Of a stretch of DNA of 64,000 nucleotides, positions 3-39,046 are shown in pieces (positions within the stretch are counted from its first letter, which is position 1; every line of letters begins with the position of its first letter). The DNA is taken from IMG/VR virus record IMGVR_UViG_3300042514_001345; one strand, 5' to 3'. Under the pieces are notes generated by a model. It saw only the letters and a list, made by a program, of their open reading frames with translations. It searched no databases and was not told the origin of the DNA. The position numbers and the translations under genes are program-made. The stretch is from a virus. Lineage: Duplodnaviria > Heunggongvirae > Uroviricota > Caudoviricetes.

Positions 3-1097
3 GCAGCATCCGCCGCTGCTAGTTCAGCCGCTAGTTCTGCTGCGAGTTCCGCTGCTAGTAGTTCTGCAAGTTCCGCAGCTAGTAGTTCCGCAAGTTCTGC
101 CGCGGCTAGTTCTGCGTCAACCCCACCGCCAGTGACACCACCACCATCAAGCGGAAGTTCATCATCAACACCACCTGCAACGAGTGGTGGATCATCATCC
201 TCTAGTAGTTCATCTTCTAGTAGTTCATCGTCATCATCATCGGAAAGTAAAACAGAAACTAAAACCGAAGCAAAGACGGAAAGTAAAAGTGAATCAAAAT
301 CGGAAACTAAATCTGAAGAGAAAAAAGAAGAAGCTAAATCAGAAACTAAAGAAGAAAAGAAAGAAGAGAGTAAATCAGAGGAGAAAAAAGAGGAAAAGAA
401 AGAAGAAAAAAAGGAAGAAAAGAAAAAGGAAAAAGCGGCGGTAACTAATCCAATGTTATTGTCATCAGATTTGTCAACAATTGAATCGCCTGACGGTAGA
501 TGGTTACAATCAGCAACTATTGGTGTTTCTAAATCATCGTTAGGTGGCGATAAAAGTTATTCTGCAAATACGGTCATTATGAGCGATTTAAAGACGTTTA
601 TTGTTAGTGGTGGATATACTAAGATGGACTTTAATGGAGGCAAATTAAACGCAATACATTCGTATTCAAGCGCATTTGCTTATTTGAATGGTAATTACAT
701 GAATTTATTGGGGTATACGTGGATTAAACCAACCCCAAAACATGGTGTTTTTGGTTATAACTTAGGTTTGATTAATTTATTTTTGAAATCGACAGATACC
801 ACATATGACTATAACATGTCAACCTCTGTTGTGGCATTTTGGACCAAGCCATATCAGTATAGTAAAAAATTAACCATTTCACCTCAGTTATTTACGATGT
901 TTGCACCAATATCTTGGAATAGTGTTGCTGGAACAACTACGGTAAATAGACATATGGGCTTTTTGGTAGGTGCTTCCTTTGATTATAAAATTAGTAAGAG
1001 GTTTGGATTTAGTTTTAACTATAAACTAAGTGGAAATACCGCTTCAGGAACACCATTCTTAAGTAATTTCTTAATCGGTACTAGAGCTATATTATAA
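3..1097 (+). CDS. 5-prime partial low-complexity protein: Ser/Ala-rich, then Lys/Glu-rich, with a C-terminal beta-strand-rich domain that may be an outer-membrane beta-barrel
   Basis: The frame is open from the window edge, so the GTG at 132 is probably not the true start. Translation gives AASAAASS..., then a (K/E/S/T)n run, then about 220 aa with an alternating hydrophobic pattern (GFSFNYKLSG, GFLVGASFDYKIS). Confidence 0.45.
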   Translation, partial: AASAAASSAASSAASSAASSSASSAASSSASSAAASSASTPPPVTPPPSSGSSSSTPPATSGGSSSSSSSSSSSSSSSSSESKTETKTEAKTESKSESKSETKSEEKKEEAKSETKEEKKEESKSEEKKEEKKEEKKEEKKKEKAAVTNPMLLSSDLSTIESPDGRWLQSATIGVSKSSLGGDKSYSANTVIMSDLKTFIVSGGYTKMDFNGGKLNAIHSYSSAFAYLNGNYMNLLGYTWIKPTPKHGVFGYNLGLINLFLKSTDTTYDYNMSTSVVAFWTKPYQYSKKLTISPQLFTMFAPISWNSVAGTTTVNRHMGFLVGASFDYKISKRFGFSFNYKLSGNTASGTPFLSNFLIGTRAIL

Positions 1098-1154: not shown

Positions 1155-1892
1155 ATGAAAATATTAGTAATCGGAGACGTTTGTGATGACGTTTTTATTT
1201 ACGGAGTGTGCGAAAGATTATGCCCTGAAGCACCCGTTCCGGTTTTTAAACCGACAAAAGTAACTAGAAATTTAGGGATGGCTGGTAATGTCTATGATAA
1301 TTTATTATCATTGGATGTTGAGGTAGTTGATTTACTATCAAATAAAGAAAAAATAACGAAAACTAGATATGTTGATGAAAAATCAAATCAAATGTTAATT
1401 CGTGTAGACGATAATGATGTTATTGAAAACACATTTAAGTTTGAATCTATCGATTTTGAAAAATATGATGCAGTTATTGTTTCAGATTATGATAAGGGGT
1501 TTTTAACAACTAAAGATTTGGAATTAATATCTAATTCACATAATTTAACATTTTTAGATACGAAAAAAATATTAGGTCCTTGGGCAATAAAATATTCATA
1601 CATAAAAATAAATGAAACTGAGTGGCAAAACTGTGAAAAAGGAGGATTAGATTATAACTACTGGAAAGAAAAACTAATTATTACTAAATCTAGTAAAGGT
1701 TGTTTTTTTAATGGTAAAACATACCCAACTGAAAACGAATTAGTTATAATGGATGTTAGTGGTGCGGGAGATACCTTTATGGCATCATTTGTTGTTTCAT
1801 ATGTGAAAAATAAAGACGTAGATGTTTCAATTAGATTTGCTAATCATTGTTCTGGTATCGTAATTCAAAAAAGAGGGGTTAGTACTTTATGA
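1155..1892 (+). CDS. D-glycero-beta-D-manno-heptose-7-phosphate kinase-like sugar kinase (HldE N-domain / HldA; pfkB ribokinase family)
   Basis: VIGDVCDDVFIYGVCERLCPEAPVPVFKP aligns with E. coli HldE VVGDVMLDRYWYG..ISPEAPVPVVK. A pfkB-family GAGDTF motif lies near the C-terminus. The ATG at 1155 is preferred over the TTG at 1128. Confidence 0.8.
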   Translation: MKILVIGDVCDDVFIYGVCERLCPEAPVPVFKPTKVTRNLGMAGNVYDNLLSLDVEVVDLLSNKEKITKTRYVDEKSNQMLIRVDDNDVIENTFKFESIDFEKYDAVIVSDYDKGFLTTKDLELISNSHNLTFLDTKKILGPWAIKYSYIKINETEWQNCEKGGLDYNYWKEKLIITKSSKGCFFNGKTYPTENELVIMDVSGAGDTFMASFVVSYVKNKDVDVSIRFANHCSGIVIQKRGVSTL

Positions 1893-2305
1893 AAAAAGTT
1901 TGGATAAATGGGTCATTTGATATTTTACATATTGGCCACATACGTCTTATAAATTTTGGGAAATCCTTTGGTTCTATAAGAGTGGGTTTGGACACAGACA
2001 AAAGAATTAATGAAAAAAAAGGGTTATTTAGACCATTTAACACACTATCGGATAGAATGGAGTTTATATCTAATATCAATGGAGTAGATTCGGTAGTATC
2101 TTTTAATTCAGACATTGAATTATCTGAATTAATTATGGATTATAACCCAGATTATTTTATTATTGGTGATGATTATCTGAATAAACCAATAATTGGTTCA
2201 CAATATGCAAAAGAAATTGTATATTTTAATAAAATTAACGGGTACTCAACCACTAATTTAATTTATAAATGTAAAAACGATGTTACCAGAACCACAAATT
2301 ACTGA
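1889..2305 (+). CDS. heptose-1-phosphate adenylyltransferase-like cytidylyltransferase (HldE C-domain / HldC)
   Basis: WINGSFDILHIGHIRLINFGKSFG matches the nucleotidyltransferase motif V-x-GxFDxxHxGH. It overlaps the upstream kinase gene with an ATGA junction. Confidence 0.8.
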   Translation: MKKVWINGSFDILHIGHIRLINFGKSFGSIRVGLDTDKRINEKKGLFRPFNTLSDRMEFISNINGVDSVVSFNSDIELSELIMDYNPDYFIIGDDYLNKPIIGSQYAKEIVYFNKINGYSTTNLIYKCKNDVTRTTNY

Positions 2306-2651
2306 TTGTTGTAAAATACCAAAAGGATGGGGGCACGAACTAATTATTGAGAATAATGAACTTTACTGCGGTAAAATTTTAGTTTTCAATAGCGGTTGTA
2401 GATTCTCAATGCATTATCATTTATTAAAGGATGAAACTTGGTATGTTAATTCAGGGGAATTTATCTATAAATTTATCGATACTGAAAAAGGATTAACAAA
2501 AGAAATAAATTTAAAAAAAGGTGACGTTGTTAGACAAAGACCAGGACAACCGCACCAATTAATAGCACTAACAGATGGTGAGATTTTTGAAGTATCAACA
2601 ACTCATTTCGATAGTGATAGTTATAGAATAGAAAAAGGAAATACATTATGA
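2280..2651 (+). CDS. cupin-fold protein (possible sugar isomerase/epimerase)
   Basis: Small beta-rich ORF with His-containing cupin-like motifs (GWGHELIIEN, FSMHYH). It sits inside the sugar-nucleotide cassette. Confidence 0.45.
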   Translation: MLPEPQITDCCKIPKGWGHELIIENNELYCGKILVFNSGCRFSMHYHLLKDETWYVNSGEFIYKFIDTEKGLTKEINLKKGDVVRQRPGQPHQLIALTDGEIFEVSTTHFDSDSYRIEKGNTL

Positions 2652-3052
2652 CAGAAAGAAAATATTTACCAACCTTAGCAGAATTAGTTGATAGATTATC
2701 AATATCACAATTAAAAGAGGTGTTTATAGCTGAACACAAAGTGGAATACTCACAAGAAATAAAGGATATTGTTCATGATATTCAGTTGTGTTTAAATGAT
2801 ACGGATCAACCGATAACCGCAGAAACAATTAGGGCGATTGTTGTTTTATCTCAAATGAATTTACACATTTGGCATAATGAATCAAATTACCGTAAAGGTA
2901 TTAAAGACGGTAATAACCTAGAATTAACCCACGGAATTAATGGTATTAGAAATACCGCTAAAAATAAAATACAAGAGATTGTTGGCGGTAGAAAAGATTA
3001 CAAAATAGATTGTTTAGCTGCCGATTTCAAAGATTGGGAAATTAGCTGGTAA
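2648..3052 (+). CDS. hypothetical protein
   Basis: 134-aa ORF overlapping the upstream stop codon (ATGA junction). Confidence 0.4.
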   Translation: MTERKYLPTLAELVDRLSISQLKEVFIAEHKVEYSQEIKDIVHDIQLCLNDTDQPITAETIRAIVVLSQMNLHIWHNESNYRKGIKDGNNLELTHGINGIRNTAKNKIQEIVGGRKDYKIDCLAADFKDWEISW

Positions 3053-3812
3053 TATTTTTTAATATAATATTAGCAATCGTCTTATGACCAGTTAAACCCA
3101 TATGGTGATCTGGCATTGTTTTACCTTCACCAAAAAATTCATAATCTTTATGTATTGTCATATATGGGTACATGCTAAAAAGCGTGTCAAAACAACTAAA
3201 TGTATATCCACCATATTCTAAATTTAAAAATTTTTTAGATAACAATTCATCATTTTTAATTAAATTAAGATAATCATTTGTCCAAGAAATAATATTGAAT
3301 TTTATATTTCTATTGTCTAGATATATTGCCAAATCTTTTATATTTAAAACTATTTGTTTTTTAAGATCATAAAGCCAGTCATCAATGTTTATTTTTTCTT
3401 CAATTAGATATTCTTTAAACTCTTTTAATTTATGATTATTATCGTGTAAATTAGACCCGTCTAACCATTTTTCTTCACCTTTATAAAAATAACGATATGG
3501 GGATCTAAATGGTTGTGTTGTTTGAAGTAATACATATTCAACATTTTCATCTATATTGTTTTTTATAAACTCAATACTTTCGAAATCTGAACCACCATTC
3601 TCATCTTTAACAATGTCCACTTTATTTAAGTGATTAGCTACAATTTTAGAATATCGATTTTTCTTTATAAAATCCACATGTTCATCGGTTAAAAATTCTT
3701 TAACATAATGATTTGACGGCATGATTTTAATATCGTTAAATTCACCATAGTATTGTAATCCTTGTCCCCAAGTAAATGAATCACCAGCAAAAATAAATTT
3801 TTTATTTAACAT
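3042..3812 (-). CDS. SGNH/GDSL-like hydrolase family protein
   Basis: N-terminal FIFAGDSFTWGQG matches SGNH block I (GDSxxxG). It is the first of three tandem paralogs. Confidence 0.5.
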   Translation of the reverse strand: MLNKKFIFAGDSFTWGQGLQYYGEFNDIKIMPSNHYVKEFLTDEHVDFIKKNRYSKIVANHLNKVDIVKDENGGSDFESIEFIKNNIDENVEYVLLQTTQPFRSPYRYFYKGEEKWLDGSNLHDNNHKLKEFKEYLIEEKINIDDWLYDLKKQIVLNIKDLAIYLDNRNIKFNIISWTNDYLNLIKNDELLSKKFLNLEYGGYTFSCFDTLFSMYPYMTIHKDYEFFGEGKTMPDHHMGLTGHKTIANIILKNITS

Positions 3813-4557
3813 AGATAAAGTTGTGTAATTCTTTAGCGATATGCTTCATACCCGAAACCGAAAGATGAGAGTCAGTGGGTAAGCAATAGTTATTTTTAAT
3901 AGTATGTTTAAGCATTGAATAATCCCCATTAATATTGAAAAACCCTCGTTTTTTTAATTCGGATAATTCTTTATTTTTATTTATTTCTGGCCAATATATA
4001 AAAATAATTTTAGAATTAAATTTCTCAGCATATGCATTTAACACATCGATTTGATACATTAGATACATGAAAGATTCGTGTTCATTAAAAACATATTTAA
4101 GGTATGTTTCATATGATACTTTTAATTCATTAAGTATGTCATCTGGTATATTGTTATCAATTTTACCATAACTTGATTGTATAACATTTTTAATAAAATC
4201 AATATGAAAAGGAAATTTTAATTCATCGCTTGATTCGTTAATCATTGGGATTGAATTTATAAATTCTGGCTGATAATCAACCCAAGAATTTATGATGTCA
4301 TGATATCCACCTGTTCTATGTAAAAAAGTTAATTGACAAATAAATAACGAATTATTATAATCTTCTTGATTAATTGCGTCATATATTTTTTTTAATATTA
4401 AATTATTACTTTGTCCTGGATATGCATAAGATTTAACCTTAGAATGATCACCTAAGGTCTTGTCATAAACAAGTAATGAAAATTCATGTGGAAAACTAGG
4501 ATTTCCGCATGAATATGAACAACCAGTAAAAAGTATTTTATTCTGCAATGAATTCAA
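3802..4557 (-). CDS. SGNH-like paralog with a GCSY block-I variant
   Basis: N-terminal ILFTGCSYSCG is paralogous to the ORFs at 3042..3812 and 5799..6845. Confidence 0.45.
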   Translation of the reverse strand: MNSLQNKILFTGCSYSCGNPSFPHEFSLLVYDKTLGDHSKVKSYAYPGQSNNLILKKIYDAINQEDYNNSLFICQLTFLHRTGGYHDIINSWVDYQPEFINSIPMINESSDELKFPFHIDFIKNVIQSSYGKIDNNIPDDILNELKVSYETYLKYVFNEHESFMYLMYQIDVLNAYAEKFNSKIIFIYWPEINKNKELSELKKRGFFNINGDYSMLKHTIKNNYCLPTDSHLSVSGMKHIAKELHNFIYVK

Positions 4558-5824
4558 ATGGTTTTAATGTCATGGTTGGAACAAACCTATGGTGATAGTG
4601 TTCTGTATTATGTGATGTTTCTTTAAAATTTGAAAAATACATACCATGCATTTCATCATCAGTTAACTCACATAATTTTTTTATGTGATTCATAAATGAA
4701 TATAACACATATTCTTTTTCAACATATGGATCAACATGTTTAATTTTATTTTCATAATCCTTAAAATATATTGGGTTATCAAAACTAAATCCAGATTCTT
4801 TAAGAAATGGATAATATTTTTCACTATTAATTCCACAAAAAGGTGTGAATGACGCAAGTGGTTTCCAGGTCTTTTCACTAACCCAAGTTCTATCTTTTAC
4901 CCCAAAAAAGGTTTCAATAAAAATCTCAAAATAAGTGGATATTTGCAACGGAAGATTTGATGTGTGAAAACCAACTTGTCTTAATGTAAAAATTTGTTTA
5001 TTTTCTACCCTTTCTCGCATCATTCCAATAAAATCGGTGTCAGATTTTTCAACTACGTCATCTGCCATTGAATCAATTAATAATGGAAACTTTTTAGAAA
5101 ATGGGTGATTGTACATATATTCAACCTCATAATCCGAGTTGTACATTTTTGCTGTTTCGTTTACTGGAAAAATATTTAAATCCGGAAAAGAAATCTTACC
5201 CAAATTTTCAAAACCGTTTTCGTGTATAAACTTAACAACTCTCCATCTTGTTAATTTGGGGTGATGGTTAAAAAATATAAATCTATTTTGTTTTTTAAAT
5301 TGAGTTGTTGACACCATAGATTGTATGAAATTTAAATTGTCTGGTGTTAGGCAGTATGAATGTGGTTTATCATCCCAAAAGAAAACTCTATGTGGGTAAT
5401 CACAAATTAATTGAGCATTACAACTAAAAACAATCCATCTGATATTTGGATATTTTTCCATTATTTTAGTCAATATTCCATGATATACATGATTGTAATA
5501 TTCAATATATGAAAATTCAAAAATAATTTTATTTACATCTGGAACTTCACTTATGAGTTTTTCTATAGCCACTTCCATATTTGTTGACCTTTCTGGAGGG
5601 GTGATATCATTATCTGTAAACATTGTAGCAATCATTAGATTATAGATAATAACAGTGTCATTTGATTTATCCAAATAACTTGCAATGTTTCGATTTTTAA
5701 TTAAACCCAATTCTATTAAACGATTGAATTTCCCAACAAATTTATGGGAATTAATATTGTATTTTGCTTTTTCAATAAATCTATTATGCCCTTCGGTTTC
5801 ATAGAAGTGTAACTTTGCCGCCAT
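4538..5824 (-). CDS. hypothetical protein (428 aa) within the carbohydrate cassette
   Basis: Long ORF that overlaps its neighbours. No motif was recognised. Confidence 0.4.
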   Translation of the reverse strand: MAAKLHFYETEGHNRFIEKAKYNINSHKFVGKFNRLIELGLIKNRNIASYLDKSNDTVIIYNLMIATMFTDNDITPPERSTNMEVAIEKLISEVPDVNKIIFEFSYIEYYNHVYHGILTKIMEKYPNIRWIVFSCNAQLICDYPHRVFFWDDKPHSYCLTPDNLNFIQSMVSTTQFKKQNRFIFFNHHPKLTRWRVVKFIHENGFENLGKISFPDLNIFPVNETAKMYNSDYEVEYMYNHPFSKKFPLLIDSMADDVVEKSDTDFIGMMRERVENKQIFTLRQVGFHTSNLPLQISTYFEIFIETFFGVKDRTWVSEKTWKPLASFTPFCGINSEKYYPFLKESGFSFDNPIYFKDYENKIKHVDPYVEKEYVLYSFMNHIKKLCELTDDEMHGMYFSNFKETSHNTEHYHHRFVPTMTLKPFEFIAE

Positions 5825-6845
5825 ATTCTTTTAAGTTTTTATAATTATCAATTGTTATTTCTTTAAAATTATTGTTTTTATAATCCCAATCCTTTATGAA
5901 TTCATTATTGACTTGGTCTATTAAACCAGAGTCCACAGCATATCTAAAGTCACCATATTGGTTTAAATGATCTCCGAAGGATACTGGTTTAACACCATGT
6001 GTTAAGTACCCGATTGTGCCGATATTTTCTAACGCAAATTCATCAATCCCACCATACTCAATTCTATCATTATTATATAGAATAAAATTACCCCAATCAA
6101 TTAGATTGCGATATTTTGACCACTTTTTATCGTTGTACAAAATAGAATCTTTCCATTTTTTAGGTAATATATATTTGGTGTTATCTACTTCTTCAATTTT
6201 CTCAACCCCTTCAATTTTTTCAACCGTTTTGATTTCAAACTCATTTAAGGGAGTACTTGTCCTATCGAAATTAAAACCAGTTAATGAGGCATTAAAGAAT
6301 AAAAATCGATATTTAATATCGTTTATTTTTAAAAAATTTTGCAAGTTAGTAATGTCAAAATGATACCTTATTGCTCTTTCGGTTGGAGAATTGGTTGGTT
6401 GAGATTTTAATAGAAATTCTTTGAATTCTTTATATTCTTTTTTCTTTTCACGATAAATTGTACCAAGTTGATTTTCAATATTAATAAAACCAATATTGTC
6501 TATTCCTTGACTATATATTTCACAATCATTTCGTAGTTTCCAAGTACTAGCATCAAACGATGTTGTAAATATTTTAACCTCTTCGAATTCAGTAATATCA
6601 TAAGATGTTGTTTCTCTAAACATACTTGACCATTGACAAATAACAAATATATTTTTTGGTTGAACTCCTTTATCCAATAATTTTTGAACAAACATCATTG
6701 CCGAATATAACTGATACTGACTACCTAAAGAACTACCTTGTAAGTTATATACTTTTATATCACCAAAGTAACCAATGTTTATTAAGTCCCGAAAAGCTCT
6801 TGCTTGTTGACCATATGAACATCCAGTAAATACTAAGTGTTTCAT
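5799..6845 (-). CDS. SGNH-like paralog with a GCSY block-I variant
   Basis: N-terminal LVFTGCSYGQQ matches the 3802..4557 ORF. Confidence 0.45.
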   Translation of the reverse strand: MKHLVFTGCSYGQQARAFRDLINIGYFGDIKVYNLQGSSLGSQYQLYSAMMFVQKLLDKGVQPKNIFVICQWSSMFRETTSYDITEFEEVKIFTTSFDASTWKLRNDCEIYSQGIDNIGFINIENQLGTIYREKKKEYKEFKEFLLKSQPTNSPTERAIRYHFDITNLQNFLKINDIKYRFLFFNASLTGFNFDRTSTPLNEFEIKTVEKIEGVEKIEEVDNTKYILPKKWKDSILYNDKKWSKYRNLIDWGNFILYNNDRIEYGGIDEFALENIGTIGYLTHGVKPVSFGDHLNQYGDFRYAVDSGLIDQVNNEFIKDWDYKNNNFKEITIDNYKNLKEYGGKVTLL

Positions 6846-7387
6846 CTATCTCTTTTTTGTAGTGTTGGGTTAGTTGTTGGCCATTCCATTTGATATTCTG
6901 GGTCGTTCCATTTAACAACACCTTGTTCGTTTGCATCAACGTAACCATCTTTATAAAATAAATTATAATGAAACATACAATCAGTTAATGCATAATGGCC
7001 GTTAGCAAAACCTGGAGGTATTAAAACTTGATTTCTATCTTTTTCAGTTATCATAAATGATTCCCAGTCACCAAAAGTATCTGAATTTGGTCTCATATCT
7101 AAAACCACTAGATAGATATCACCTACCGCCGCCTGAACTAATTTCCAGGTTTTATTGTCATAATGTAGTCCCCTTAATACACCTTTATATGATTTAGAAA
7201 AACGACCATGAATACTAATCTCATTTTTTTCATAATGAATATGTCTCATTACTGGATGTTCTTCACTATGAAATGTTGTAAAAATTTCACCCCTATATTC
7301 TCTGTATATTGAGGGTGTAAAAGTAGGTACCTGATACCCGAATTTTTTTGATGGTGTTTCTATGAACTCATCCCATTTATTACTCAT
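6842..7387 (-). CDS. dTDP-4-dehydrorhamnose 3,5-epimerase-like (RmlC-family cupin) NDP-sugar epimerase
   Basis: RGEIFTTFH...KGVLRGLHYD...GDIYLVVLDMRP...VLIPPGFANGHYAL matches the conserved RmlC core (RGLHxQ, IPxGxAHGF). Confidence 0.75.
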   Translation of the reverse strand: MSNKWDEFIETPSKKFGYQVPTFTPSIYREYRGEIFTTFHSEEHPVMRHIHYEKNEISIHGRFSKSYKGVLRGLHYDNKTWKLVQAAVGDIYLVVLDMRPNSDTFGDWESFMITEKDRNQVLIPPGFANGHYALTDCMFHYNLFYKDGYVDANEQGVVKWNDPEYQMEWPTTNPTLQKRDR

Positions 7388-7388
7388 A

Positions 7389-8357
7389 CTATGTGTTGTT
7401 TGCGTATCCTAAAGGAAAACCATTTCTAAATTCAGATGTCATTCTTGGTATGAGGACTTGATATGTTTTCATCAATTCAACAATACCGTCATCTAAACCA
7501 TAATTAGGTTTCCATCCAATAGATTCTATTTTATTGTTTGATACAATATAATCTCGTTTATCCGGATCTTCGTAAAAATCAGAATATGATATGGCAAAGT
7601 CAGGAATGTATTGTTTTATCTTGGTTAAAAGTTCTTCCTTATTTAAATTGGCATCACTTAAACCAACATTATACACATTATTTTTCATTGTGTCATAGTT
7701 CTCAATGGCGAATGTAAAAACGTTTGCAACGTCTTGTATGTGTATGAAATTACGTTTAAAATGTTTTTCAAAAACGACAATATACTTGTCTGTCATCGCT
7801 TTATAAACAAACTCATTAACTAATAAATCGGTTCTCATTCTTGGGGAACTACCAAATACTGTCGCCAATCTAAAACAAACTGCGGATGTACTAAACATCA
7901 ATAAATTTTCAGCAGCACATTTACTTTCACCATAAACAGATATCGGTTTTAATGGGGATTCTTCAGTACATTCAGTTTGATTCTCACCAATACCATATCC
8001 ACTATTTGTGTTCGGATAGAGGATTAGTTGATTTTTAGACAGATGAGGTACTATATTTTTTACTTGTTCAAAATTAACATCCCAAGATAGTTTAGGATCG
8101 GCTTTACATGCTGGAAATCCAACAATGGCGGCTAAAGGAATAATCACATCGTGTGTTTTAACCAGCTTTTCTAATAAACTTTCATTACGCACGTCACCAT
8201 AAATAAAATTATATTTTGGGTTATAAGTGAATTGTAGCGGGGATATTTGTTTGAACATTAGGTTATCTAGTACGGTAACTTGATGACCTAAATCTAGCAT
8301 GTTTTTAGTGATGACGGAACCAAGATAACCAGCACCACCTGTTATAAGAATTTTCAT
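7389..8357 (-). CDS. NAD-dependent epimerase/dehydratase (extended SDR)
   Basis: MKILITGGAGYLGS Rossmann motif with a YGESK (YxxxK) catalytic dyad. Length is 322 aa. Confidence 0.7.
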   Translation of the reverse strand: MKILITGGAGYLGSVITKNMLDLGHQVTVLDNLMFKQISPLQFTYNPKYNFIYGDVRNESLLEKLVKTHDVIIPLAAIVGFPACKADPKLSWDVNFEQVKNIVPHLSKNQLILYPNTNSGYGIGENQTECTEESPLKPISVYGESKCAAENLLMFSTSAVCFRLATVFGSSPRMRTDLLVNEFVYKAMTDKYIVVFEKHFKRNFIHIQDVANVFTFAIENYDTMKNNVYNVGLSDANLNKEELLTKIKQYIPDFAISYSDFYEDPDKRDYIVSNNKIESIGWKPNYGLDDGIVELMKTYQVLIPRMTSEFRNGFPLGYANNT

Positions 8358-8398: not shown

Positions 8399-8731
8399 TT
8401 AGTTAATATTTGCAAAATAATCGTGCAGATTTTTAATTTCAGCACATTTCTCATAGTCCTCATTATCTTCGTAATATGGTAATATTTGCTTAATTAAAAT
8501 TTCGTAATCCAACTTCTTAAAACTAAATTCGGTATCCCATGACAACACACCCATATCCGTTGACACCAATAAGGTTAAAACACGTTTTCTGGAATTGTTT
8601 TTAAATTCGGTGTAAATGTCTAAAACACCGCGATAAATTCCGTCTCGATTTGTGTTATACAAATCCTTAAAATCGTTGTACATTCTTTTTTCAATCTCAA
8701 CAACGATGAATGGTTCTTTTTTTCTAGTCAT
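8399..8731 (-). CDS. hypothetical protein
   Basis: 110-aa ORF. Confidence 0.35.
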   Translation of the reverse strand: MTRKKEPFIVVEIEKRMYNDFKDLYNTNRDGIYRGVLDIYTEFKNNSRKRVLTLLVSTDMGVLSWDTEFSFKKLDYEILIKQILPYYEDNEDYEKCAEIKNLHDYFANIN

Positions 8732-9932
8732 TTTTAAAAGGTTTTGAGTGTGATGGGTATATTGAGTTCCAGATCATTTCGTTTAATTGATTTGAGTATG
8801 AATCTAATCTTTTAAAAAGAAATGACCTATTGGGGTTGTCTTTTATTTTTTCAGCAAATTCTTTTTTATCTATCAACTCTTTAAATTGATTTTCCACATC
8901 GGTTTTAATGGTGTCAAATTGATTTTGTAAATCTAGAATTGTGGTTTTAACCCAATTGTTAAATTCATCTGGGACTTTTTCAAGTAGTTCATCAAACGGT
9001 CTGTTATCTTTCAAATATTCCCAAATATCTCTATTTGATATGTTGGTTAAAATCCTATGAAGTCGTACATATTCGTCGCCTTTGATTTTCATTCGAAAAC
9101 CATTTTTAAAACGAATTACATATCCTTCTCTATCTTTCGATATTTCTTCTTTTAACAAGTCATACGATTCCCCCCATGTTTTGTATGTCATAACAACTTC
9201 AAATCCAGAATCTTGCGTCCAAAACAAACTACTATCGGGTATTTCTTCACCTGTTTCTGTATGGATACCACCGAGAACAACTAATTTTTCTTCACCTTTA
9301 TAATCAACAACAATTCTATTTTCGGGATAGATAATTTCAAACAAATATGTATTGTCTTTTCTCCATGCGCTGATGTCATGCCTATCAAGAATTTCTTTTC
9401 CTTTAATTGCTTGTGGTGAGGTAAATGATCCGCGAGTTGCTAATATCCACTCACCCTTTCTTTTTGGTGTTGGTTCGTAATATGGGTTATCGAAATCAGG
9501 TAAGTCATTCGGGTTAAAGAATTTTTCCATACCCGTTTCATAATTGTTATTAAACCAAATATTGTATCTTCTTTCATCCGTTAATTCTTCTTCATAATAA
9601 AAAAGAATACCTAAAGATCCATCCATCTTTTCATAAACAACATAATCTTCATTTGGTATGTCTTCAGGTTTATGTTCTTCGTAATTAAAAAATTTCTTAA
9701 ATGGTCTAGCGATTATCTCACCTTTTGAGTTGGTGACTAACCCGCGACATTGTATTGTAATATCATCCCATAACCTATCATATTGAACCTTTGGAGTATA
9801 ATTCCAAATGAACAAATCATATTTTGGGTGTTTTTGCTTTGAAAGCAAACCATTTTGAAAGTATGTCTCTAATTTTTCTAACACTAAGTTTTTTTGTTTT
9901 GGGGTTAACTGCTTTTGTAAACGATACAACAA
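8724..9932 (-). CDS. RNA ligase (T4 Rnl1-like)
   Basis: YEKMDGSLGILFY contains the nucleotidyltransferase motif I, KxDGSL, as in T4 RnlA (KEDGSL). Size is 402 aa, and a Pnk-like kinase gene lies adjacent. Confidence 0.6.
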   Translation of the reverse strand: MLYRLQKQLTPKQKNLVLEKLETYFQNGLLSKQKHPKYDLFIWNYTPKVQYDRLWDDITIQCRGLVTNSKGEIIARPFKKFFNYEEHKPEDIPNEDYVVYEKMDGSLGILFYYEEELTDERRYNIWFNNNYETGMEKFFNPNDLPDFDNPYYEPTPKRKGEWILATRGSFTSPQAIKGKEILDRHDISAWRKDNTYLFEIIYPENRIVVDYKGEEKLVVLGGIHTETGEEIPDSSLFWTQDSGFEVVMTYKTWGESYDLLKEEISKDREGYVIRFKNGFRMKIKGDEYVRLHRILTNISNRDIWEYLKDNRPFDELLEKVPDEFNNWVKTTILDLQNQFDTIKTDVENQFKELIDKKEFAEKIKDNPNRSFLFKRLDSYSNQLNEMIWNSIYPSHSKPFKND

Positions 9933-9943
9933 ACTTACTCATG

Positions 9944-10372
9944 TCATAATTGAATATCAAATCTACTTATCATTGATTGTAGTTTATTTTCTGGAACATT
10001 GTGAATATTAGAACTACCATGCCTATTTTCCACAATTAATGTGTGAACACGATAACGATATCTCTCAGCCATCTCAAAATACATCTTCATTTCCCATTCT
10101 TCTGTGAAAGTATTTGCAACAACAATTTTAGAAAATTCCATCCTCATTCTTTCAGCACATTTTAACTGGCAATCATTATGTGCTTCTTTTAATTTTGTTG
10201 CGTCAAAATTATAGTTACCCTTATCATCGATAAAGAAATTATCGGCAGATAACACATCCTGAATATTGGATTGATTGGTATGTAGTATTACATCCCCTAA
10301 TGTCGATTTACCGCTACCAGGAATGCCTCTAAGTAGGATTAAATCACCAATATATTTTTCTTCCATATCCAT
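9944..10372 (-). CDS. polynucleotide 5-prime kinase domain protein (T4 Pnk N-domain-like, P-loop)
   Basis: LLRGIPGSGKSTLG resembles T4 Pnk GCPGSGKSTWA. The 142-aa product corresponds to the kinase domain only. Confidence 0.55.
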   Translation of the reverse strand: MDMEEKYIGDLILLRGIPGSGKSTLGDVILHTNQSNIQDVLSADNFFIDDKGNYNFDATKLKEAHNDCQLKCAERMRMEFSKIVVANTFTEEWEMKMYFEMAERYRYRVHTLIVENRHGSSNIHNVPENKLQSMISRFDIQL

Positions 10373-12235: not shown

Positions 12236-13033
12236 ATGGAAAATCTGGTAAATATCGAGCGTCTAAGTGATTTATTATCAATACCTTCGGTAACATATGA
12301 CGAATGGGACATGGTTGAGTACCTATCAGAGTATTTTGATAAAAAGGGTTATGAGTATGGTGTGGATTCATATGGTAACATTTTTGTTACCAAGGGGACC
12401 GATGTAATAAAACCGTTGATTTGTGCTCACATAGACACCGTCCATAAAAAAACAAAAATCAACATAAAAGAAGAATGGTTACCTAGATTAAGTTGTTATG
12501 GTCAAGTATACCCATACGATGAAAACGTTTTATGTTTAAAGGGTTATGATGATAATGGTGAAGAAACTGGTTGTGGTGGTGATGATAAGTGTGGTGTATA
12601 TGTTTGTTTAGAAATATTGGATCGTGTTGATAATATCAAACTAGCGTTCTTTGTTTCAGAAGAAACAGGTTGTATTGGTTCTAGTAATTGTGAACCAGAG
12701 TTTTTTGAAAATACAAAGTTCGTATTATCCTACGATGCTCCCGGAAATCAATTGGTTACCGAAATTTGTAACGGTGTTAGAATATTTGATAGGGAAAGTG
12801 ATTTCTTTAAAGTTGTTTCAAAAACATTTGAGGAGATTGATTATAAACCATTATATGGTAGTCATCCCTACACAGACATTTATATGATGAAAAAACGATT
12901 TGATATTGATGGGGTAAATTTATCTTGTGGATATTATAATATGCACAGAAAATCAGAATATGTCTGTGTCGACGACGTTGCTAAAGCCATCGACACAGGG
13001 CTTAAATTACTCACTAACCTTTCCAACAACTAA
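12236..13033 (+). CDS. M20/M42-family metallopeptidase-like protein
   Basis: CAHIDTV (HxD), GYDDNGEE..GGDDKCG (DDK) and FVSEETGCIGS (EE) are arranged like the M20 metal-binding motifs. Confidence 0.5.
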   Translation: MENLVNIERLSDLLSIPSVTYDEWDMVEYLSEYFDKKGYEYGVDSYGNIFVTKGTDVIKPLICAHIDTVHKKTKINIKEEWLPRLSCYGQVYPYDENVLCLKGYDDNGEETGCGGDDKCGVYVCLEILDRVDNIKLAFFVSEETGCIGSSNCEPEFFENTKFVLSYDAPGNQLVTEICNGVRIFDRESDFFKVVSKTFEEIDYKPLYGSHPYTDIYMMKKRFDIDGVNLSCGYYNMHRKSEYVCVDDVAKAIDTGLKLLTNLSNN

Positions 13034-15037
13034 TTTAAGAATTAGTTTATCTTCTTTGAATATTATTTTGTAATTTTTATTCTCTTTAATGGTGCCTTTT
13101 AATATTTCATCACTAAGGAAATCTTCACATAGTGATTGAATTATTCTTTTGATTGGTCTAGCACCATATTCTTGTTGTTTATTTCTGTTGAAAATTTCAT
13201 CAATAACAGTTGAATCAAATTTAATTGAATAACTTTTCTCAATTAATCTTTTTGTCAACTTTTCCATTTCTAATGTAATAATTGATTTAAGTGCTGTTTC
13301 ATCTAACGGATTAAATAAAACAATATCATCAATTCTATTTAGGAATTCTGGGTTAAATTGTTGTTTCAATGATTTTTGAATCATAGTTCTTTTAACCTCA
13401 TATGATTGTTGTTCGCTAGATGCTGTAGAGAATCCAATTCCTGCACCAAATTCGGAAACTCTTTTAGCCCCAATATTTGAGGTCATAATAATCAACGTGT
13501 TGGTAAAATTTATTTTTCTACCAAAAGAATCTGTAACGTGTCCTTCATCCAATATTTGAAGTAAAATGTTAAACACATCTTTGTGTGCTTTTTCAATTTC
13601 ATCAAATAGAATCACCGAGAATGGATTGTTTTTAACCTTTTCAGTTAATTGCCCACCCTCATCATAACCAACATATCCTGGAGGCGCACCAACTAATCTT
13701 GATACTGTGTGTTTTTCCATAAACTCACTCATATCAATTCTAATAACATTGTCCGCTGAACCAAATATTAATTCAGCCAAAGTTTTGGCTAGATATGTTT
13801 TACCCACACCAGTTGATCCCATAAAAATGAATGAACCAATAGGTTTTTGTGTTTCTTTAATCCCAACACGATTTCTTCTAATGGCTTTGGATATACTAGC
13901 TAGAGCTTCTGATTGACCAATAACTTTTTCACCTAATCTTTTTTCAAGGTTAATTAAATTTTCAGTTTCTTTGCGGTCTAATCTAGTAATTGGAACACCG
14001 GCCATTGATGTGATCATTTCATAAACATCATCAATACTAATCGGTATTTTATTATTTTTTTCGTTGTCTGCCCATATTGCTTTTTCGCTATTTAAACGAT
14101 TAATAACTTTTCTTTCTTCATCTCTTAGTTTTGCGGCTTGCTCATAATTTTGAGTACGAACAACTTCGAGTTTTTTTTCTTTAATAACTTCGGCATCCTT
14201 TTTTAATTTCTCAATAATTTCTGGAACCTCAATTACTACTCTTTTTTCCGAACCTAATTCATCTAGAACGTCAATTGCTTTGTCTGGGAATTGTCTATCT
14301 GTCATATAACGACCAGCAAGTTTGACCGCAATTTCAATCACACCTTCACCATAAGAAACTCTGTGATAGTCCTCATATGATTGCTTTAGATTTTTTAAAA
14401 TCTCTATTGTTTCCGTTTCTGTTGGTTCTTTTAATATGATTTTCTGGAATCTTCTAACCAAAGCACCATCCTTTTCAATGTGTTTTTTAAACTCATCAAA
14501 AGTTGTGGCACCAATACATTGAATTTCACCTCTAGCTAATGCTGGCTTTAAGATATTTGCAGCATCCATTGCTCCAGAAGCGTTACCAGCACCAACCATT
14601 GTATGTAATTCATCTATGAAAAGAATTACGTTGGGGTTTTCGGCTAATTCGTGTATAATAGCTTTAATCCTTTCTTCAAATTGACCTCGATATTTTGTAC
14701 CAGCAACTAATGAAGTTAAATCTAAGGAAACCAGTCGTTTATCCAATAAATTGGTTGGACAATTACCTTTAACAATCATTAACGCTAATTTCTCAACAAG
14801 TGCAGATTTTCCAACACCCGCATCACCAACAATGACCGCGTTGTTTTTTTTCTTTCTCGAAAGAATTTGTGCAATTCTTTTTACTTCCTTGTCTCTACCA
14901 ACGACCGGATCTATTTTATTATCCTCGGCTAGTTTGTTTAGATCCCTTGAAAAATTATCAAGAATTGGCGTTGTGGAGGAACTTTTTCTGTTCCTAGGGT
15001 TGGTTTTTGGACCGTCTTCAAAAAAATCTACTGACAT
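13007..15037 (-). CDS. ClpA/ClpC-like two-domain AAA+ unfoldase without an N-domain
   Basis: Two Walker A motifs (GDAGVGKSA, GSTGVGKTY), a UVR-like linker between D1 and D2, and an IGF tripeptide (GAGIGFSTASS) after sensor-1 of D2. Confidence 0.85.
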   Translation of the reverse strand: MSVDFFEDGPKTNPRNRKSSSTTPILDNFSRDLNKLAEDNKIDPVVGRDKEVKRIAQILSRKKKNNAVIVGDAGVGKSALVEKLALMIVKGNCPTNLLDKRLVSLDLTSLVAGTKYRGQFEERIKAIIHELAENPNVILFIDELHTMVGAGNASGAMDAANILKPALARGEIQCIGATTFDEFKKHIEKDGALVRRFQKIILKEPTETETIEILKNLKQSYEDYHRVSYGEGVIEIAVKLAGRYMTDRQFPDKAIDVLDELGSEKRVVIEVPEIIEKLKKDAEVIKEKKLEVVRTQNYEQAAKLRDEERKVINRLNSEKAIWADNEKNNKIPISIDDVYEMITSMAGVPITRLDRKETENLINLEKRLGEKVIGQSEALASISKAIRRNRVGIKETQKPIGSFIFMGSTGVGKTYLAKTLAELIFGSADNVIRIDMSEFMEKHTVSRLVGAPPGYVGYDEGGQLTEKVKNNPFSVILFDEIEKAHKDVFNILLQILDEGHVTDSFGRKINFTNTLIIMTSNIGAKRVSEFGAGIGFSTASSEQQSYEVKRTMIQKSLKQQFNPEFLNRIDDIVLFNPLDETALKSIITLEMEKLTKRLIEKSYSIKFDSTVIDEIFNRNKQQEYGARPIKRIIQSLCEDFLSDEILKGTIKENKNYKIIFKEDKLILKLVVGKVSE

Positions 15038-15440: not shown

Positions 15441-16234
15441 GAAAGAAAACATTAATTGAAGAACTGATTGAGGTTTCAGACCCAGAACTTGATGATAAGA
15501 TTGTAAAATCGTTTCATAAGAAAACTGAACTATCTTCAGATATTTTTGAGAAAAATGATTATGGTTATACCATGAATAAAGGTGTTAGAGAAAAACTAAT
15601 GTTAATTTCTGATGCCTTTTTAGATTTTGTGAAGATTAATTTTTTTGTTCATGACGTTGTTTTGACCGGCTCGTTGGCAAATTATAACTGGTCAGAGTTT
15701 TCTGACATTGATTTACACATTGTAGTTGATTTCGATGAATTGGGTAAAGATGCTGAAAAAACATCTGATTCATTAAAAGATATTGTAAAAGAATTTTTTG
15801 ACGCTAAAGAAAGGGTTTGGAACAACAGACACGATATTAAAATTAAAGGTTACGATGTTGAAATCTATGTTCAAGAAATTAATCAGGAGCACGTATCCTC
15901 TGGGGTATATTCTATATTAAATAATAAATGGATTGTCGAACCAGAATATGGGAAAGAATCTATTGATGAAGATAAAATACTAAAAAAAGCAGAATATTTT
16001 GTAAGTACCATCGATAAACTAGTCGAAAATGCAAATAATGGCGAAGACGTTGAAAGCCAAGTTGAGAAGTTAAGATTAAAATTGAAACGTTTTAGACAAA
16101 GTGGCTTAGATGATGGTGGTGAGTACTCATACGAGAACCTTACTTTCAAATTATTAAGAAGAAATGGGTACATTGAAAAACTATTGGGACTTAAAAAGAA
16201 ACTTATAGATAAGAAATTATCTGTGGAGTATTAA
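15437..16234 (+). CDS. Pol-beta-superfamily minimal nucleotidyltransferase
   Basis: LTGSLANYNWSEFSDIDLHIVVD matches the G[SG]x9-13Dh[DE]h NTase signature. Start overlaps the KTSC gene stop (ATGA). Confidence 0.55.
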   Translation: MRKKTLIEELIEVSDPELDDKIVKSFHKKTELSSDIFEKNDYGYTMNKGVREKLMLISDAFLDFVKINFFVHDVVLTGSLANYNWSEFSDIDLHIVVDFDELGKDAEKTSDSLKDIVKEFFDAKERVWNNRHDIKIKGYDVEIYVQEINQEHVSSGVYSILNNKWIVEPEYGKESIDEDKILKKAEYFVSTIDKLVENANNGEDVESQVEKLRLKLKRFRQSGLDDGGEYSYENLTFKLLRRNGYIEKLLGLKKKLIDKKLSVEY

Positions 16235-20099: not shown

Positions 20100-21878
20100 A
20101 TGAATAATAAATTAGAACAATTAAAAGAATATGCTAAAATTATTAAAGATGCTCCGTATGCTTTAAAAACATACTTAACAACTTATGATAATACGCAAAA
20201 GAAATATGTTCCTCTAGAATTATTTCCTGACCAAATTCAATTAATACAGGATTACGAAACATACAACGAAAACATTACAAGAAAGTATAGACAGGCGGGT
20301 GTTACAACAGTAACCGCTGCGTGGATTTCAAAAAAATTACAGACAGCAAAAGAAAGTGAACCTGAAAGAGTTCTTCTTATTGCGAACAAAAGAGACACCG
20401 CGGTAGAAATGGCTAATAAAGTTAGACACTTTATTGAGCAATGGCCGGATTGGATAAATGTGGGATTTTCACCCGATAAGAACTCAGAAAGTAGATTTAG
20501 ATTAAACAATGGTTGTGAGGTTAAGGCGGTAGCTACATCTGCGGATGCGTTACGTGGATATACCCCAACCATACTTGTATTTGATGAGGCAGCATATATT
20601 GAAGCAGGTGACGATTTTTGGGCGGCATCTATGGCGTCCCTATCAACAGGTGGTAAGATTATTCTTATCTCCACACCAAATGGTTATGACCCCATCTATT
20701 ATGGTGTTTATGACCAAGCATTACGTGGAATTAATGATTTCCATATAACGGATTTAAGATGGTTTAAAGACCCGCGTTACACTAGAGACCTATGTTGGGT
20801 AAAATGTCCTGATATATGCCATTACATGTTAAATAGGGAGCAATATAACGACGATGAAGTTGTTTTACATGACTTTGATATTGAAAAATATCAAGAACTC
20901 GTTGAACAAGGATATAAACCATTTTCATCTTGGTTTGAATCTATGTCTAAGAAATTTAAATATGATAGACGTAAGATTGCGCAGGAATTAGAATGTGACT
21001 TCTTAGGTTCAGGAGATGGTGTTATTTCGGGAGATGTTCAAGAGAATATTGCAAAAAATATGATTAAAGTACCTAAAGAAAAATACATGCAAGGTACTTT
21101 TTGGATATGGAATGAACCAGTACAAGGTCATAGATATATTATGGGCGTGGACGTTAGTAGAGGTGATAGTGATGACTATTCAGCTATTAGCATTATTGAC
21201 TTTGATGAAAGGGAACAAGTTGCTGAATATGTTGGTAAAATGCCACCAGATGATTTAGCGGCAGTTGCATATAAATGGGGTATATTATACGAAGCGTTTA
21301 TAGTTGTCGATATTACTGGTGGTATGGGCGTGGCTACATCAAGAAAATTACAGGAATTAAATTATAAGAGTTTATTCATTGACGGAGTTAACACAATGAA
21401 TCCATGGGAATATAATAAAAAAGCCATGGAAAAAATACCGGGAATAAACTTCAATAATAAAAGAACCCAGATTGTAGCCGCATTTGAGGAGCAATTAAGG
21501 AAAGGTTTTGCTATCAGGTCAAATAGATTATTAAACGAATTAAACACCTTTGTGTATATTAATGGTAGACCAGACCACATGAAGGGCGCTCACGATGATG
21601 CTATTATGAGCATGAGTATCGCATTATATGCTGGGGATATATGTTTCACACAACTTAAACGAAATGAACAGCAATCAAAAGCTATGGTTGATTCTTGGAT
21701 GATTGCGGAAAGAACATATGAAACTGGTAAGAATTTTTATTCATATGGAACATCCCTAGATGCAATCGGTTCAATGCAAATGGATGGTTCACAATATAAT
21801 AATACACAATCACAACCTGCAAAACAACAATACCAAGAATATGGCTGGTTATTTGGGGCTAATAAAAAGCATTTATAA
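20100..21878 (+). CDS. terminase large subunit (T4 gp17-like)
   Basis: 592 aa with a Walker B-like ILVFDEAAYI. It lies immediately upstream of the portal gene. Confidence 0.85.
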   Translation: MNNKLEQLKEYAKIIKDAPYALKTYLTTYDNTQKKYVPLELFPDQIQLIQDYETYNENITRKYRQAGVTTVTAAWISKKLQTAKESEPERVLLIANKRDTAVEMANKVRHFIEQWPDWINVGFSPDKNSESRFRLNNGCEVKAVATSADALRGYTPTILVFDEAAYIEAGDDFWAASMASLSTGGKIILISTPNGYDPIYYGVYDQALRGINDFHITDLRWFKDPRYTRDLCWVKCPDICHYMLNREQYNDDEVVLHDFDIEKYQELVEQGYKPFSSWFESMSKKFKYDRRKIAQELECDFLGSGDGVISGDVQENIAKNMIKVPKEKYMQGTFWIWNEPVQGHRYIMGVDVSRGDSDDYSAISIIDFDEREQVAEYVGKMPPDDLAAVAYKWGILYEAFIVVDITGGMGVATSRKLQELNYKSLFIDGVNTMNPWEYNKKAMEKIPGINFNNKRTQIVAAFEEQLRKGFAIRSNRLLNELNTFVYINGRPDHMKGAHDDAIMSMSIALYAGDICFTQLKRNEQQSKAMVDSWMIAERTYETGKNFYSYGTSLDAIGSMQMDGSQYNNTQSQPAKQQYQEYGWLFGANKKHL

Positions 21879-38260: not shown

Positions 38261-39046
38261 TTAATCTACATAGTTTATTTCGCGCTTATTTTTATAAAAA
38301 AATTCTTTTTTAGCCGTTTCTAACCAGAATTTAACTTCTTTTTCCGTCAATTTTTCTTTTTCATCATTTTTATAATTCCAAAATAAAGAATCTTCTCTTA
38401 AATTAACGTGTCTGTAACCAATTTTAGGAACACTCATAACATTTACACCGTTATTTGTTAAACGTAACAATAATTCATATGAAAAAGTCAGTTTAATATT
38501 ACTTTTAAATGATCCGTTATTTTTAATAACACTAGTTCTATATAAACCACCGCTCGTTTGATAGTTTTGATATTCTAATAAAACCTCATTATCTAAAACG
38601 CCTTGCTTATCTGAAAATCCGTAAGCCCAGACAGATTCGTTTGTGAAACTAGCAAATTCACCTTCCGGATCAATGTCTTTAACGATGGTTAAAAAAACAT
38701 CAACATCTGGATATTCGGTTACGTATTCATTCATACTTTTTAACCAAGGTTTTTGATACTCGTCGTCAACTTCTAAAATTGAAAACCATTCAGTATCACA
38801 AGCATCGATGCCCAAGTTTATTTGACTACAAAAATCGGTTTCTTTTGATGTGTTATAAATAACCTCAACCTCTAATTTTTGACCAAAATTGAATTCTTTA
38901 ATTTTTTTATTTAATTTTTCAGGACAAATAATTTTAACTTTAACATCGTTATGAAATTCTTTGACAGAATCTAATGCGTTTTCTAGCATCTTATCATAAT
39001 CATTGTCTAACTTATGTACTGGAACTAAAATTGTTATATTTTTCAT
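38261..39046 (-). CDS. family-2-like glycosyltransferase (GT-A)
   Basis: N-terminal ITILVPVHKLDNDYDKMLENALDSV fits the GT2 start pattern (iiPvyN....l...l.Sv). A DxD-like ILEVDDEY is present. Confidence 0.45.
   Translation of the reverse strand: MKNITILVPVHKLDNDYDKMLENALDSVKEFHNDVKVKIICPEKLNKKIKEFNFGQKLEVEVIYNTSKETDFCSQINLGIDACDTEWFSILEVDDEYQKPWLKSMNEYVTEYPDVDVFLTIVKDIDPEGEFASFTNESVWAYGFSDKQGVLDNEVLLEYQNYQTSGGLYRTSVIKNNGSFKSNIKLTFSYELLLRLTNNGVNVMSVPKIGYRHVNLREDSLFWNYKNDEKEKLTEKEVKFWLETAKKEFFYKNKREINYVD

Follow-up and report, generated by a model that had tools for sequence, protein, structure and literature searches.

A predicted two-module island for activating and remodeling a heptose in a large tailed phage

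Which sugar is handled by the enzymes encoded between positions 1155 and 8357 of the viral record IMGVR_UViG_3300042514_001345 (IMG/VR)? In the window, that is, the whole 64,000-nt stretch of DNA analyzed here, this segment had earlier been interpreted as encoding an NDP-heptose pathway, possibly for a 6-deoxyheptose, with the enzyme set of GDP-6-deoxyheptose synthesis in the Campylobacter capsule and Yersinia O-antigen pathways (the original prediction). From family assignments, catalytic motifs, synteny and gene co-occurrence we arrive at a different reading: the ten genes of this segment probably belong together as a single sugar-nucleotide island in a large tailed phage, comprised of two modules that would activate and remodel a heptose. 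The main evidence that the remodeling oxidase acts on the activated sugar comes from related viral loci, in which a counterpart of the remodeling oxidase lies inside the activation operon. All ten open reading frames (ORFs) were verified at the coordinates below (aa, amino acids; NDP, nucleoside diphosphate; SDR, short-chain dehydrogenase/reductase).

Plus-strand operon: 1155-1892, 1889-2305, 2280-2651, 2648-3052, with overlaps of 4, 26 and 4 bp
1155..1892, plus strand: HldA-like (HldE domain I-like) pfkB sugar-phosphate kinase, 245 aa, shortened (profile, PHROG and PDB matches)
1889..2305, plus strand: HldC-like (HldE domain II-like) nucleotidyltransferase, 138 aa (profile, PHROG, motifs)
2280..2651, plus strand: small metal-binding cupin, 123 aa, candidate sedoheptulose-7-P isomerase (Cupin_2, conserved metal site)
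2648..3052, plus strand: conserved helical 134-aa protein, 'u134', last gene of the operon (sub-threshold DUF7783/DUF4254 only)
Minus-strand operon: 8357-7389, 7387-6842, 6845-5799, 5824-4538, 4557-3802, 3812-3042, each ORF adjacent to or overlapping the next
7389..8357, minus strand: extended SDR, Cj1427-like NDP-heptose C4-dehydrogenase, predicted, 322 aa (PDB match, motifs)
6842..7387, minus strand: RmlC-fold C3/C5 (or C3) epimerase, predicted, NDP-4-keto-heptose type (Cj1430/MlghB/DdahB-like), 181 aa (PDB match, residues)
5799..6845, minus strand: 348-aa protein, SGNH-like by motif only (GCSY, QGSSLG, CQWS, GDH...G...A; motifs read by eye)
4538..5824, minus strand: 428-aa protein of an uncharacterized family, speculatively a transferase
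3802..4557, minus strand: 251-aa protein, SGNH-like by motif only (GCSY, PGQSN, CQLT, DSH...G...IA; motifs read by eye)
3042..3812, minus strand: SGNH/GDSL-fold esterase or acyltransferase, 256 aa, no signal peptide (SGNH alpha/beta fold, Block I GDS nucleophile)

The two operons are convergent, and their 3' ends overlap by 11 bp at 3042-3052. The 134-aa ORF at this junction is a member of the cluster that the original prediction had not listed. A consensus scan yielded no terminators, and promoter-like sites at chance level only.

The first two genes of the plus-strand operon had been proposed to be a split HldE pair. This is borne out by profile searches (Pfam, the TIGR models of NCBIfam, and PHROG), by which both proteins are HldE-domain-like, and for the kinase also by pairwise PDB comparison. 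The kinase scores 125.5 bits against TIGR02198 (rfaE_dom_I) versus 38.7 against the ribokinase model, and the transferase scores 85 bits against TIGR02199 (rfaE_dom_II) versus 51.5 against the model of the glycerol-3-P cytidylyltransferase TagD; the profiles thus assign neither protein to ribokinases or to non-sugar cytidylyltransferases. Further matches of the kinase are to PfkB (61 bits) and phrog_8133 (272 bits), and it contains the sequence DVSGAGDTF, in which GAGDTF, the anion-hole GAGD motif of the pfkB fold, starts at residue 203. Its best PDB match is 4E84, the D-beta-D-heptose 7-phosphate kinase (HldA) of Burkholderia (48.9 bits, others ~24), and its identity to the cyanophage 'carbohydrate kinase' T4-GC 305 is 35-47%. 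The transferase, which has a cytidylyltransferase fold, also matches CTP_transf_like (59 bits) and phrog_7878 (130 bits) and carries HIGH (HxGH) at residue 14 and GYSTT (the C-terminal xSTT) at residue 118. The latter region reads INGYSTT, with Tyr in place of the STTR5 Arg, and since the Arg motif, (F/L)XXGRSTT, marks enzymes that also use CTP and UTP (PMC11573728), ADP is the likely nucleotide. We refer to the two proteins as HldA/HldC-like family members; orthology is not proven.

The cupin, the RmlC-type epimerase and the SDR enzyme named in the original prediction were all recovered (Cupin_2; dTDP_sugar_isom, 111 bits; Epimerase, 124 bits), and in the PDB comparison the latter two are nearest to the capsular heptose enzymes of Campylobacter. 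The SDR aligns with 6VO6/6VO8 over 302 residues ungapped at 56% identity (375.6 bits; next best match 80.6 bits). Its motifs include GGAGYLG at residue 7 (the GxxGxxG NAD site), D31 after beta-2, NTNSGYG at 116 and YGESK at 142 (Tyr-x3-Lys), so that the Ser/Thr-Tyr-Lys triad is complete; it has no TDE, and NTNSGYG stands at the position of this motif in dehydratases. The RmlC-like protein scores ~114 bits against the C. jejuni heptose epimerases 7ANG, 8DCO, 7M14 and 8DCL, versus 81 bits at most against true RmlC. Its residues H75, K82, N129, Y141 and D180 correspond to H67, K74, N121, Y134 and D173 of MlghB, and the MlghB/DdahB counterparts of these five residues matter by mutagenesis; MlghB Y132 is replaced by Phe. 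In C. jejuni, Cj1427 oxidizes C4, its tightly bound NADH being re-oxidized by alpha-ketoglutarate, and is followed by the epimerase Cj1430 and the reductase Cj1428 (PMC10680097). Because the phage pair is matched to heptose enzymes that keep the 6-hydroxyl, it would remodel a heptose in which this group is retained.

The GDP-6-deoxyheptose originally suggested as the product is difficult to reconcile with these assignments, and we consider it very improbable and largely refuted, even though an RmlC-like epimerase and an SDR are both present. Pfam scans and phmmer found no 4,6-dehydratase and no second SDR in the window, and the sole SDR is of the C4-dehydrogenase type without TDE. In Campylobacter and Yersinia, GDP-alpha-heptose is formed with the help of HddA, which is a GHMP kinase, and of HddC, whereas the activation enzymes of the window are of the ADP-beta (HldA/HldC) type. 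The enzyme set is hence a hybrid and not, as had been proposed, that of the GDP-heptose pathways.

Do the two operons serve one sugar? Comparative genomics of the kinase provides the main answer. Locus counts refer to the best 80 kinase-bearing viral loci, out of at least 571 IMG/VR contigs that encode a kinase relative. The kinase also has relatives in 33 deposited phage records, many of them annotated as heptose kinase/adenylyltransferase, and the cupin in 35 records; the view that heptose pathways are rarely reported in phages does not hold against the 33 records and the at least 571 contigs. The module of kinase, transferase and cupin is common to T4-like cyanophages (P-SSM2, S-SM2, P-TIM68, S-CAM1 and others) at 40-50% identity, where the transferase is named T4-GC 304, the kinase T4-GC 305 and the cupin T4-GC 307. 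Among the 80 loci, the transferase is present in 56, the cupin in 51, a small HAD protein (T4-GC 306) in 45 and an HldD-like SDR (T4-GC 308) in 19; cupin and HAD occur together in 44 of the 52 loci that hold either.

Four of these loci (L019, L020, L028 and L030) share the order u134-kinase-SDR-transferase-HAD-cupin in overlapping ORFs, and their SDR is Cj1427-like (44-49% identical). Its location inside activation operons argues that the oxidase acts on what the HldA/HldC-like enzymes produce. The 134-aa protein points in the same direction: u134 is found in 18 of the 80 loci, an SDR match stands alongside in 18 of 18 (for example, L019:9588-10001), and its sequence is 80-90% identical between phages whose kinases are 45-50% identical. 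The whole ten-gene island is syntenic in the uncultured relatives L004 (an IMG/VR contig), L005 (an 83-kb ENA scaffold) and L016. Records of relatives of this phage include IMGVR_UViG_3300034198_012353 and scaffold_60 of ENA ERZ28593838.

These data also bear on an explanation in which the operons are independent, the plus-strand genes making ADP-heptose or feeding the pathway of the host lipopolysaccharide (LPS) core and the minus-strand pair acting on another pool (host GDP-alpha-heptose or another NDP-sugar). The 56% identity of the SDR to a GDP-heptose enzyme would agree with it, as would the absence of the SDR from many kinase loci and the occurrence of the SDR/RmlC pair (78-90%) in phage islands that have no kinase, transferase or cupin within 10 kb. 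However, the Cj1427-like SDR lies between kinase and transferase in the four loci above, u134 bridges the modules, the adjacency of the two operons is kept in L004, L005 and L016, and scans of the window found no GDP-heptose enzymes (GHMP kinase, HddC-type transferase). We regard such independence as unlikely and favor a single heptose island.

As a second module, the SDR/RmlC-like pair is 78-90% identical in other large-phage sugar islands; SDR homologues at 78-86% identity are plentiful there beside RmlC-like genes, and the RmlC-like protein is 87-93% identical in other phages. At these identities, the pair is either unusually conserved or has been exchanged recently among phages. It occurs at 78-90% in four large environmental phage contigs of 100-243 kb (L008, L011, L013 and L014) with differing neighbors, namely genes for a carbamoyltransferase, a radical SAM protein, a split thiamine pyrophosphate transketolase, a Trp-halogenase-like protein, and GT7 plus laminin-G; further SDRs and GT7-like genes also accompany the pair in large-phage sugar islands. 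A much fuller pathway than that of the window is encoded by the 16-gene single-strand sugar operon of L019 (L019:500-14000), which runs in the order RmlC, DegT aminotransferase, GT11, FkbM methyltransferase, GT1-like, SDR, FkbM, SDR, u134, kinase, Mpo1-like 99-aa protein, Cj1427-like SDR, transferase, HAD, cupin and GDP-mannose-dehydratase-like SDR. Over the window it has in addition the aminotransferase, the GT11 and GT1-like proteins, the FkbM methyltransferases and three further SDRs.

How could the heptose phosphate be supplied, and its second phosphate removed? The reported lack of GmhA and GmhB in the window was confirmed: the SIS (GmhA) and HAD (GmhB) Pfam families are found neither in the 43 further window ORFs nor in the ten island proteins, and tblastn of the window with E. 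coli GmhA and the cyanophage HADs gave nothing at E<=1. E. coli-type GmhA is likewise found in 0 of the 80 kinase loci, even at E<=1, and no GmhA match was obtained in cyanophage records. The ~110-aa T4-GC 306 is widely annotated as 'phosphoheptose isomerase'; it starts with a DxDGT HAD motif, and its Pfam matches are to HAD phosphatases, all sub-threshold. Examples with the DxDGT motif are:

L003:8719-9063 (PSSM2_311)
L001:13975-14286 and 15616-15945 (SSM2_207/210)
L002:10272-10610
L019:12335-12670

Heptose enzymes of viral origin that are functional were described by Tang et al. in 2024, and according to two commentaries on that work the phosphatase is absent in viruses (PMC11573728, PMC11461863). 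To judge by its motif, T4-GC 306 is more likely this missing heptose-bisphosphate phosphatase. We also considered homology of the window cupin to T4-GC 306 and rejected it, the latter being HAD-like.

The cupin itself matches Cupin_2 and phrog_7851 (133 bits), with weak matches to D-lyxose isomerase and mannose-6-P isomerase, and is 47-50% identical to T4-GC 307. Its metal site (His-x-His...Glu...His) is complete, H45, H47, E52 and H92 being invariant in 19 diverse homologues. It co-occurs with kinase, transferase and HAD, and never with GmhA. Since relatives encode kinase, phosphatase, transferase and cupin but lack any established isomerase, the most economical interpretation is that sedoheptulose-7-P is isomerized by the metal cupin. 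We put this forward as a hypothesis for which the sequence evidence is permissive; in our literature search, no publication turned up that assigns this step to an isomerase of the cupin type.

Several observations weigh against the proposed pathway. The kinase score of 125.5 bits lies far below the TIGR02198 equivalog cut-off of 345, and its 245 aa compare with a model of 315 positions, making it ~70 residues shorter, with internal deletions. The transferase, at 85 bits, is below the TIGR02199 cut-off of 181.5, and its pairwise PDB scores are higher with ECT (53.4) and TagD (51.5) than with the HldC-like 5X9Q (44.4). The cupin matches sugar isomerases no better than dioxygenase/decarboxylase cupins; its PDB profile matches are a mixture of D-lyxose, D-mannose, L-ribose and mannose-6-P isomerases with dioxygenases and decarboxylases, and do not discriminate among them. 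The structure 6VO6, which we take to be Cj1427, is named by its depositor only as a 'putative sugar-nucleotide epimerase/dehydratase'. The known substrate of Cj1427 is GDP-alpha-heptose, in contrast to the beta-linked ADP-heptose formed by HldC-type enzymes, and at 56% identity the phage SDR might retain the GDP-alpha specificity; the gene context suggests a nucleotide other than GDP. Finally, scans of the window ORFs found neither a phosphatase nor a reductase in the window, and no recognized glycosyltransferase within the island.

The scores far under the equivalog cut-offs, the shortened kinase and the position of the transferase, as near to TagD/ECT as to HldC in pairwise searches, would also fit activation of a non-heptose sugar phosphate (a pentose, hexose or octose). 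Related cyanophage islands hold transketolase and aldolase genes, which could yield other ketose phosphates, and a precedent for the logic is the phage synthesis of UDP-arabinose for DNA hypermodification by isomerase, kinase, phosphatase and transferase (PMC13326640). The kinase and transferase folds of the arabinose pathway are different, however (PMC13326640), the heptose models lead by 87 bits for the kinase and by 33 bits for the transferase, HldA is the closest solved relative of the kinase, and the adjoining SDR and epimerase are nearest to enzymes characterized on heptose. A non-heptose substrate thus appears improbable, and heptose is retained as the substrate in the scheme that follows.

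In this scheme the substrates, the nucleotide, the order of steps and the final transfer are predicted from family membership and gene context. Module A (plus strand), consisting of the kinase, nucleotidyltransferase, cupin and 134-aa partner, would begin with the conversion of sedoheptulose-7-P to heptose-7-P by the cupin or by a host GmhA (step 1), followed by O1 phosphorylation by the HldA-like kinase (step 2). The 7-phosphate would be removed by a phosphatase encoded outside the window, either host GmhB or an unrecognized enzyme (step 3), and the HldC-like transferase would add the nucleotide, probably from ATP, to give an ADP-linked heptose (step 4). In module B (minus strand) the Cj1427-like SDR, with tightly bound NAD, would oxidize C4 (step 5), the Cj1430/MlghB-like RmlC-fold enzyme would epimerize C3 and/or C5 of the 4-keto sugar (step 6), and the keto group would be reduced either by the SDR's own bound NADH, making a redox-neutral pair, or by an unlinked or host reductase (step 7). 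The expected product is a stereoisomeric glycero-heptose that keeps its 6-hydroxyl and is not a 6-deoxyheptose. O-acyl groups may then be added or removed by the cytoplasmic SGNH enzyme, perhaps together with its two motif-level relatives (step 8), and the sugar may be transferred by the 428-aa protein or by one of two glycosyltransferases of the window, a GT2 (38261-39046) or a GT-B (42668-43885) (step 9). A bolder joint reading, which we advance tentatively and think rather less likely to be true than false, is that aquatic phages hold a self-contained heptose pathway of non-canonical make-up. In it, a His3-Glu cupin would replace GmhA, the ~110-aa HAD T4-GC 306 would be the phosphatase, the Cj1427-type oxidase would use the beta-linked NDP-heptose made by HldC, the SDR and RmlC-like protein would act here, where there is no reductase, as a redox-neutral two-protein epimerase, and u134 would be a new obligatory partner.

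The remaining island proteins can be assigned to a lesser degree. Three of them had been called SGNH-like, and this stands for the product of 3042-3812, in which the fold is evident; in that protein QxTQ (Q97, T99, Q100) replaces the Block III GxND, and D235-x-H237 replaces the Block V DxxH. For the 251-aa and 348-aa proteins the designation was not sustained beyond motifs recognized by eye, and neither has a Pfam, NCBIfam or PHROG match, although both are conserved in L004 and L006. In hhalign the 251-aa family aligns over a partial region with the 256-aa family at the C-terminus (E 0.05) and with the 348-aa family at the N-terminus (E 5.6e-4). Paralogy of the three proteins was considered and not accepted, phmmer being negative and hhalign marginal only. 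The 428-aa family has five close members among 5.8 billion clusters in a word-indexed search, and an exhaustive profile search found 124 weak remote relatives, 50 of which were scanned without revealing a Pfam family. Its profile had no sequence match in the PDB, and structure prediction gave no usable model. Its 'TETxF...TEKTxKP' motif may resemble that of GT10 fucosyltransferases; a transferase role is speculative. For u134, tblastn against phages and the PDB search returned nothing and Pfam matches were sub-threshold only; the DUF4254 literature was not informative.

The window as a whole belongs to a large tailed phage, with genes for a terminase (20100-21878), portal (21927-23738), major head protein (27212-28939), DNA polymerase (55694-58597) and a helicase. 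The terminase is at most ~28% identical to those of deposited phages, which places the window far from any of them, and no nucleotide match to the island was obtained when 50,697 phage records were searched by megablast. A scan of genome contigs with the SDR as query returned a single distant locus in a metagenome-assembled genome, from which neither a bacterial context nor a host can be inferred. The sugar island is flanked by the following genes:

132-1097, plus strand: protein with a poly-Ser, Lys/Glu-rich low-complexity N-terminus and a 216-aa C-terminal domain; ORF probably truncated by the window start
8724-9932, minus strand: RNA-ligase-like protein (RNA_lig_T4_1 in the homologue of L005)
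9944-10372, minus strand: small AAA_33 kinase
13007-15037, minus strand: ClpB-like double-AAA chaperone

The C-terminal domain of the first protein is 60% identical to the product of the kinase-adjoining gene of L004 (14688-16076), and the protein could be a Ser-rich target of glycosylation. The RNA-ligase-like, AAA_33 kinase and ClpB-like genes lie directly upstream of the island and are kept in the relative L005.

What, then, might receive the sugar? Phage clusters in which a kinase and a cytidylyltransferase accompany a GT-B enzyme heptosylate 5-hydroxymethylcytosine (5hmC) (bioRxiv 10.1101/2023.12.21.572611), which makes DNA a real option as acceptor; no gene for forming 5hmC was seen in the window. 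Two glycosyltransferases lie together with other genes on the minus strand:

38261-39046, minus strand: GT2
39043-40110, minus strand: 355-aa protein
41032-41766, minus strand: PhoH
41809-42417, minus strand: dUTPase
42668-43885, minus strand: GT-B (phrog_7162)

This interleaving of glycosyltransferases with nucleotide-metabolism genes would fit DNA or another non-envelope acceptor. A 362-aa protein with long Thr/Pro repeat linkers (TPTPTPTETPTPTP...) is encoded at 51806-52894 (plus strand) beside large putative fiber genes, in the fiber cluster that the original prediction named as a possible target of O-glycosylation.

The island may be compared with several known systems. With the HldA/HldC pathway it shares a separate kinase and transferase, each scoring best on HldE domain models, and the same predicted logic (sedoheptulose-7-P to heptose-1,7-bisphosphate, heptose-1-P and NDP-heptose); it differs in that the window has no SIS-type GmhA, GmhB or HldD and holds a metal cupin in the operon instead. 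The Campylobacter Cj1427/Cj1430 system provides the closest relatives of the SDR and epimerase, with the catalytic His, Lys, Tyr and Asp kept and the 6-hydroxyl retained. In contrast to it, the phage has no Cj1428-type reductase, its activation is of the HldA/HldC and not the HddA/HddC type, nucleotide and anomer probably differ, and the setting is a phage and not a capsule locus. The cyanomyophage 'LPS' island T4-GC 304-308 (P-SSM2, S-SM2, P-TIM68, S-CAM1) has the transferase, kinase and cupin adjacent at 40-50% identity; it adds the HAD phosphatase (GC 306) and the HldD-like SDR (GC 308), neither of which is in the window, whereas the Cj1427/Cj1430-like pair, the SGNH-like proteins and the 428-aa protein belong to the window only. 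Annotations of rfaE-like genes in phages reportedly go back to the earliest cyanomyophage genomes, and to our knowledge the sugar ('LPS') islands of cyano- and pelagimyophages, catalogued since 2005, have had no biochemical explanation. The presence of rfaE in pelagi- and cyanomyophages has already been discussed (PMC7029224).

Like the enzymes of Tang et al. 2024, those of the window would be a virus-encoded heptose kinase and nucleotidyltransferase (PMC11573728, PMC11461863). These commentaries mention neither an isomerase of the cupin type nor a Cj1427-type oxidase nor any remodeling downstream, and the window transferase has no STTR5 Arg. In the 5hmC-heptosylating cluster (bioRxiv 10.1101/2023.12.21.572611, contig 53) a phage kinase and a cytidylyltransferase-fold enzyme similarly feed a GT-B transferase; the kinase there is HAD/APH-like, and the glycosyltransferases of the window are at least 30 kb from the island. 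The system is therefore neither rare nor new in kind. Its unusual features are that the enzyme set is a hybrid, that four enzymes to be expected are absent, and that three proteins (the cupin, the HAD and the 134-aa protein) are candidates for reassignment.

This work provides a concrete scheme, testable in vitro, that couples HldA/HldC-type activation to Cj1427/Cj1430-type remodeling, and names candidates, a non-homologous isomerase and a phosphatase, for two steps for which viruses were believed to lack enzymes. What the sugar decorates is a biologically important question that lies beyond the reach of the scheme. If the scheme is true, widespread annotations ('phosphoheptose isomerase', 'nucleotidyltransferase', 'cysteine dioxygenase') would be corrected, the substrate range of the Cj1427 family would be widened, and enzymes for rare NDP-heptose isomers would become available.

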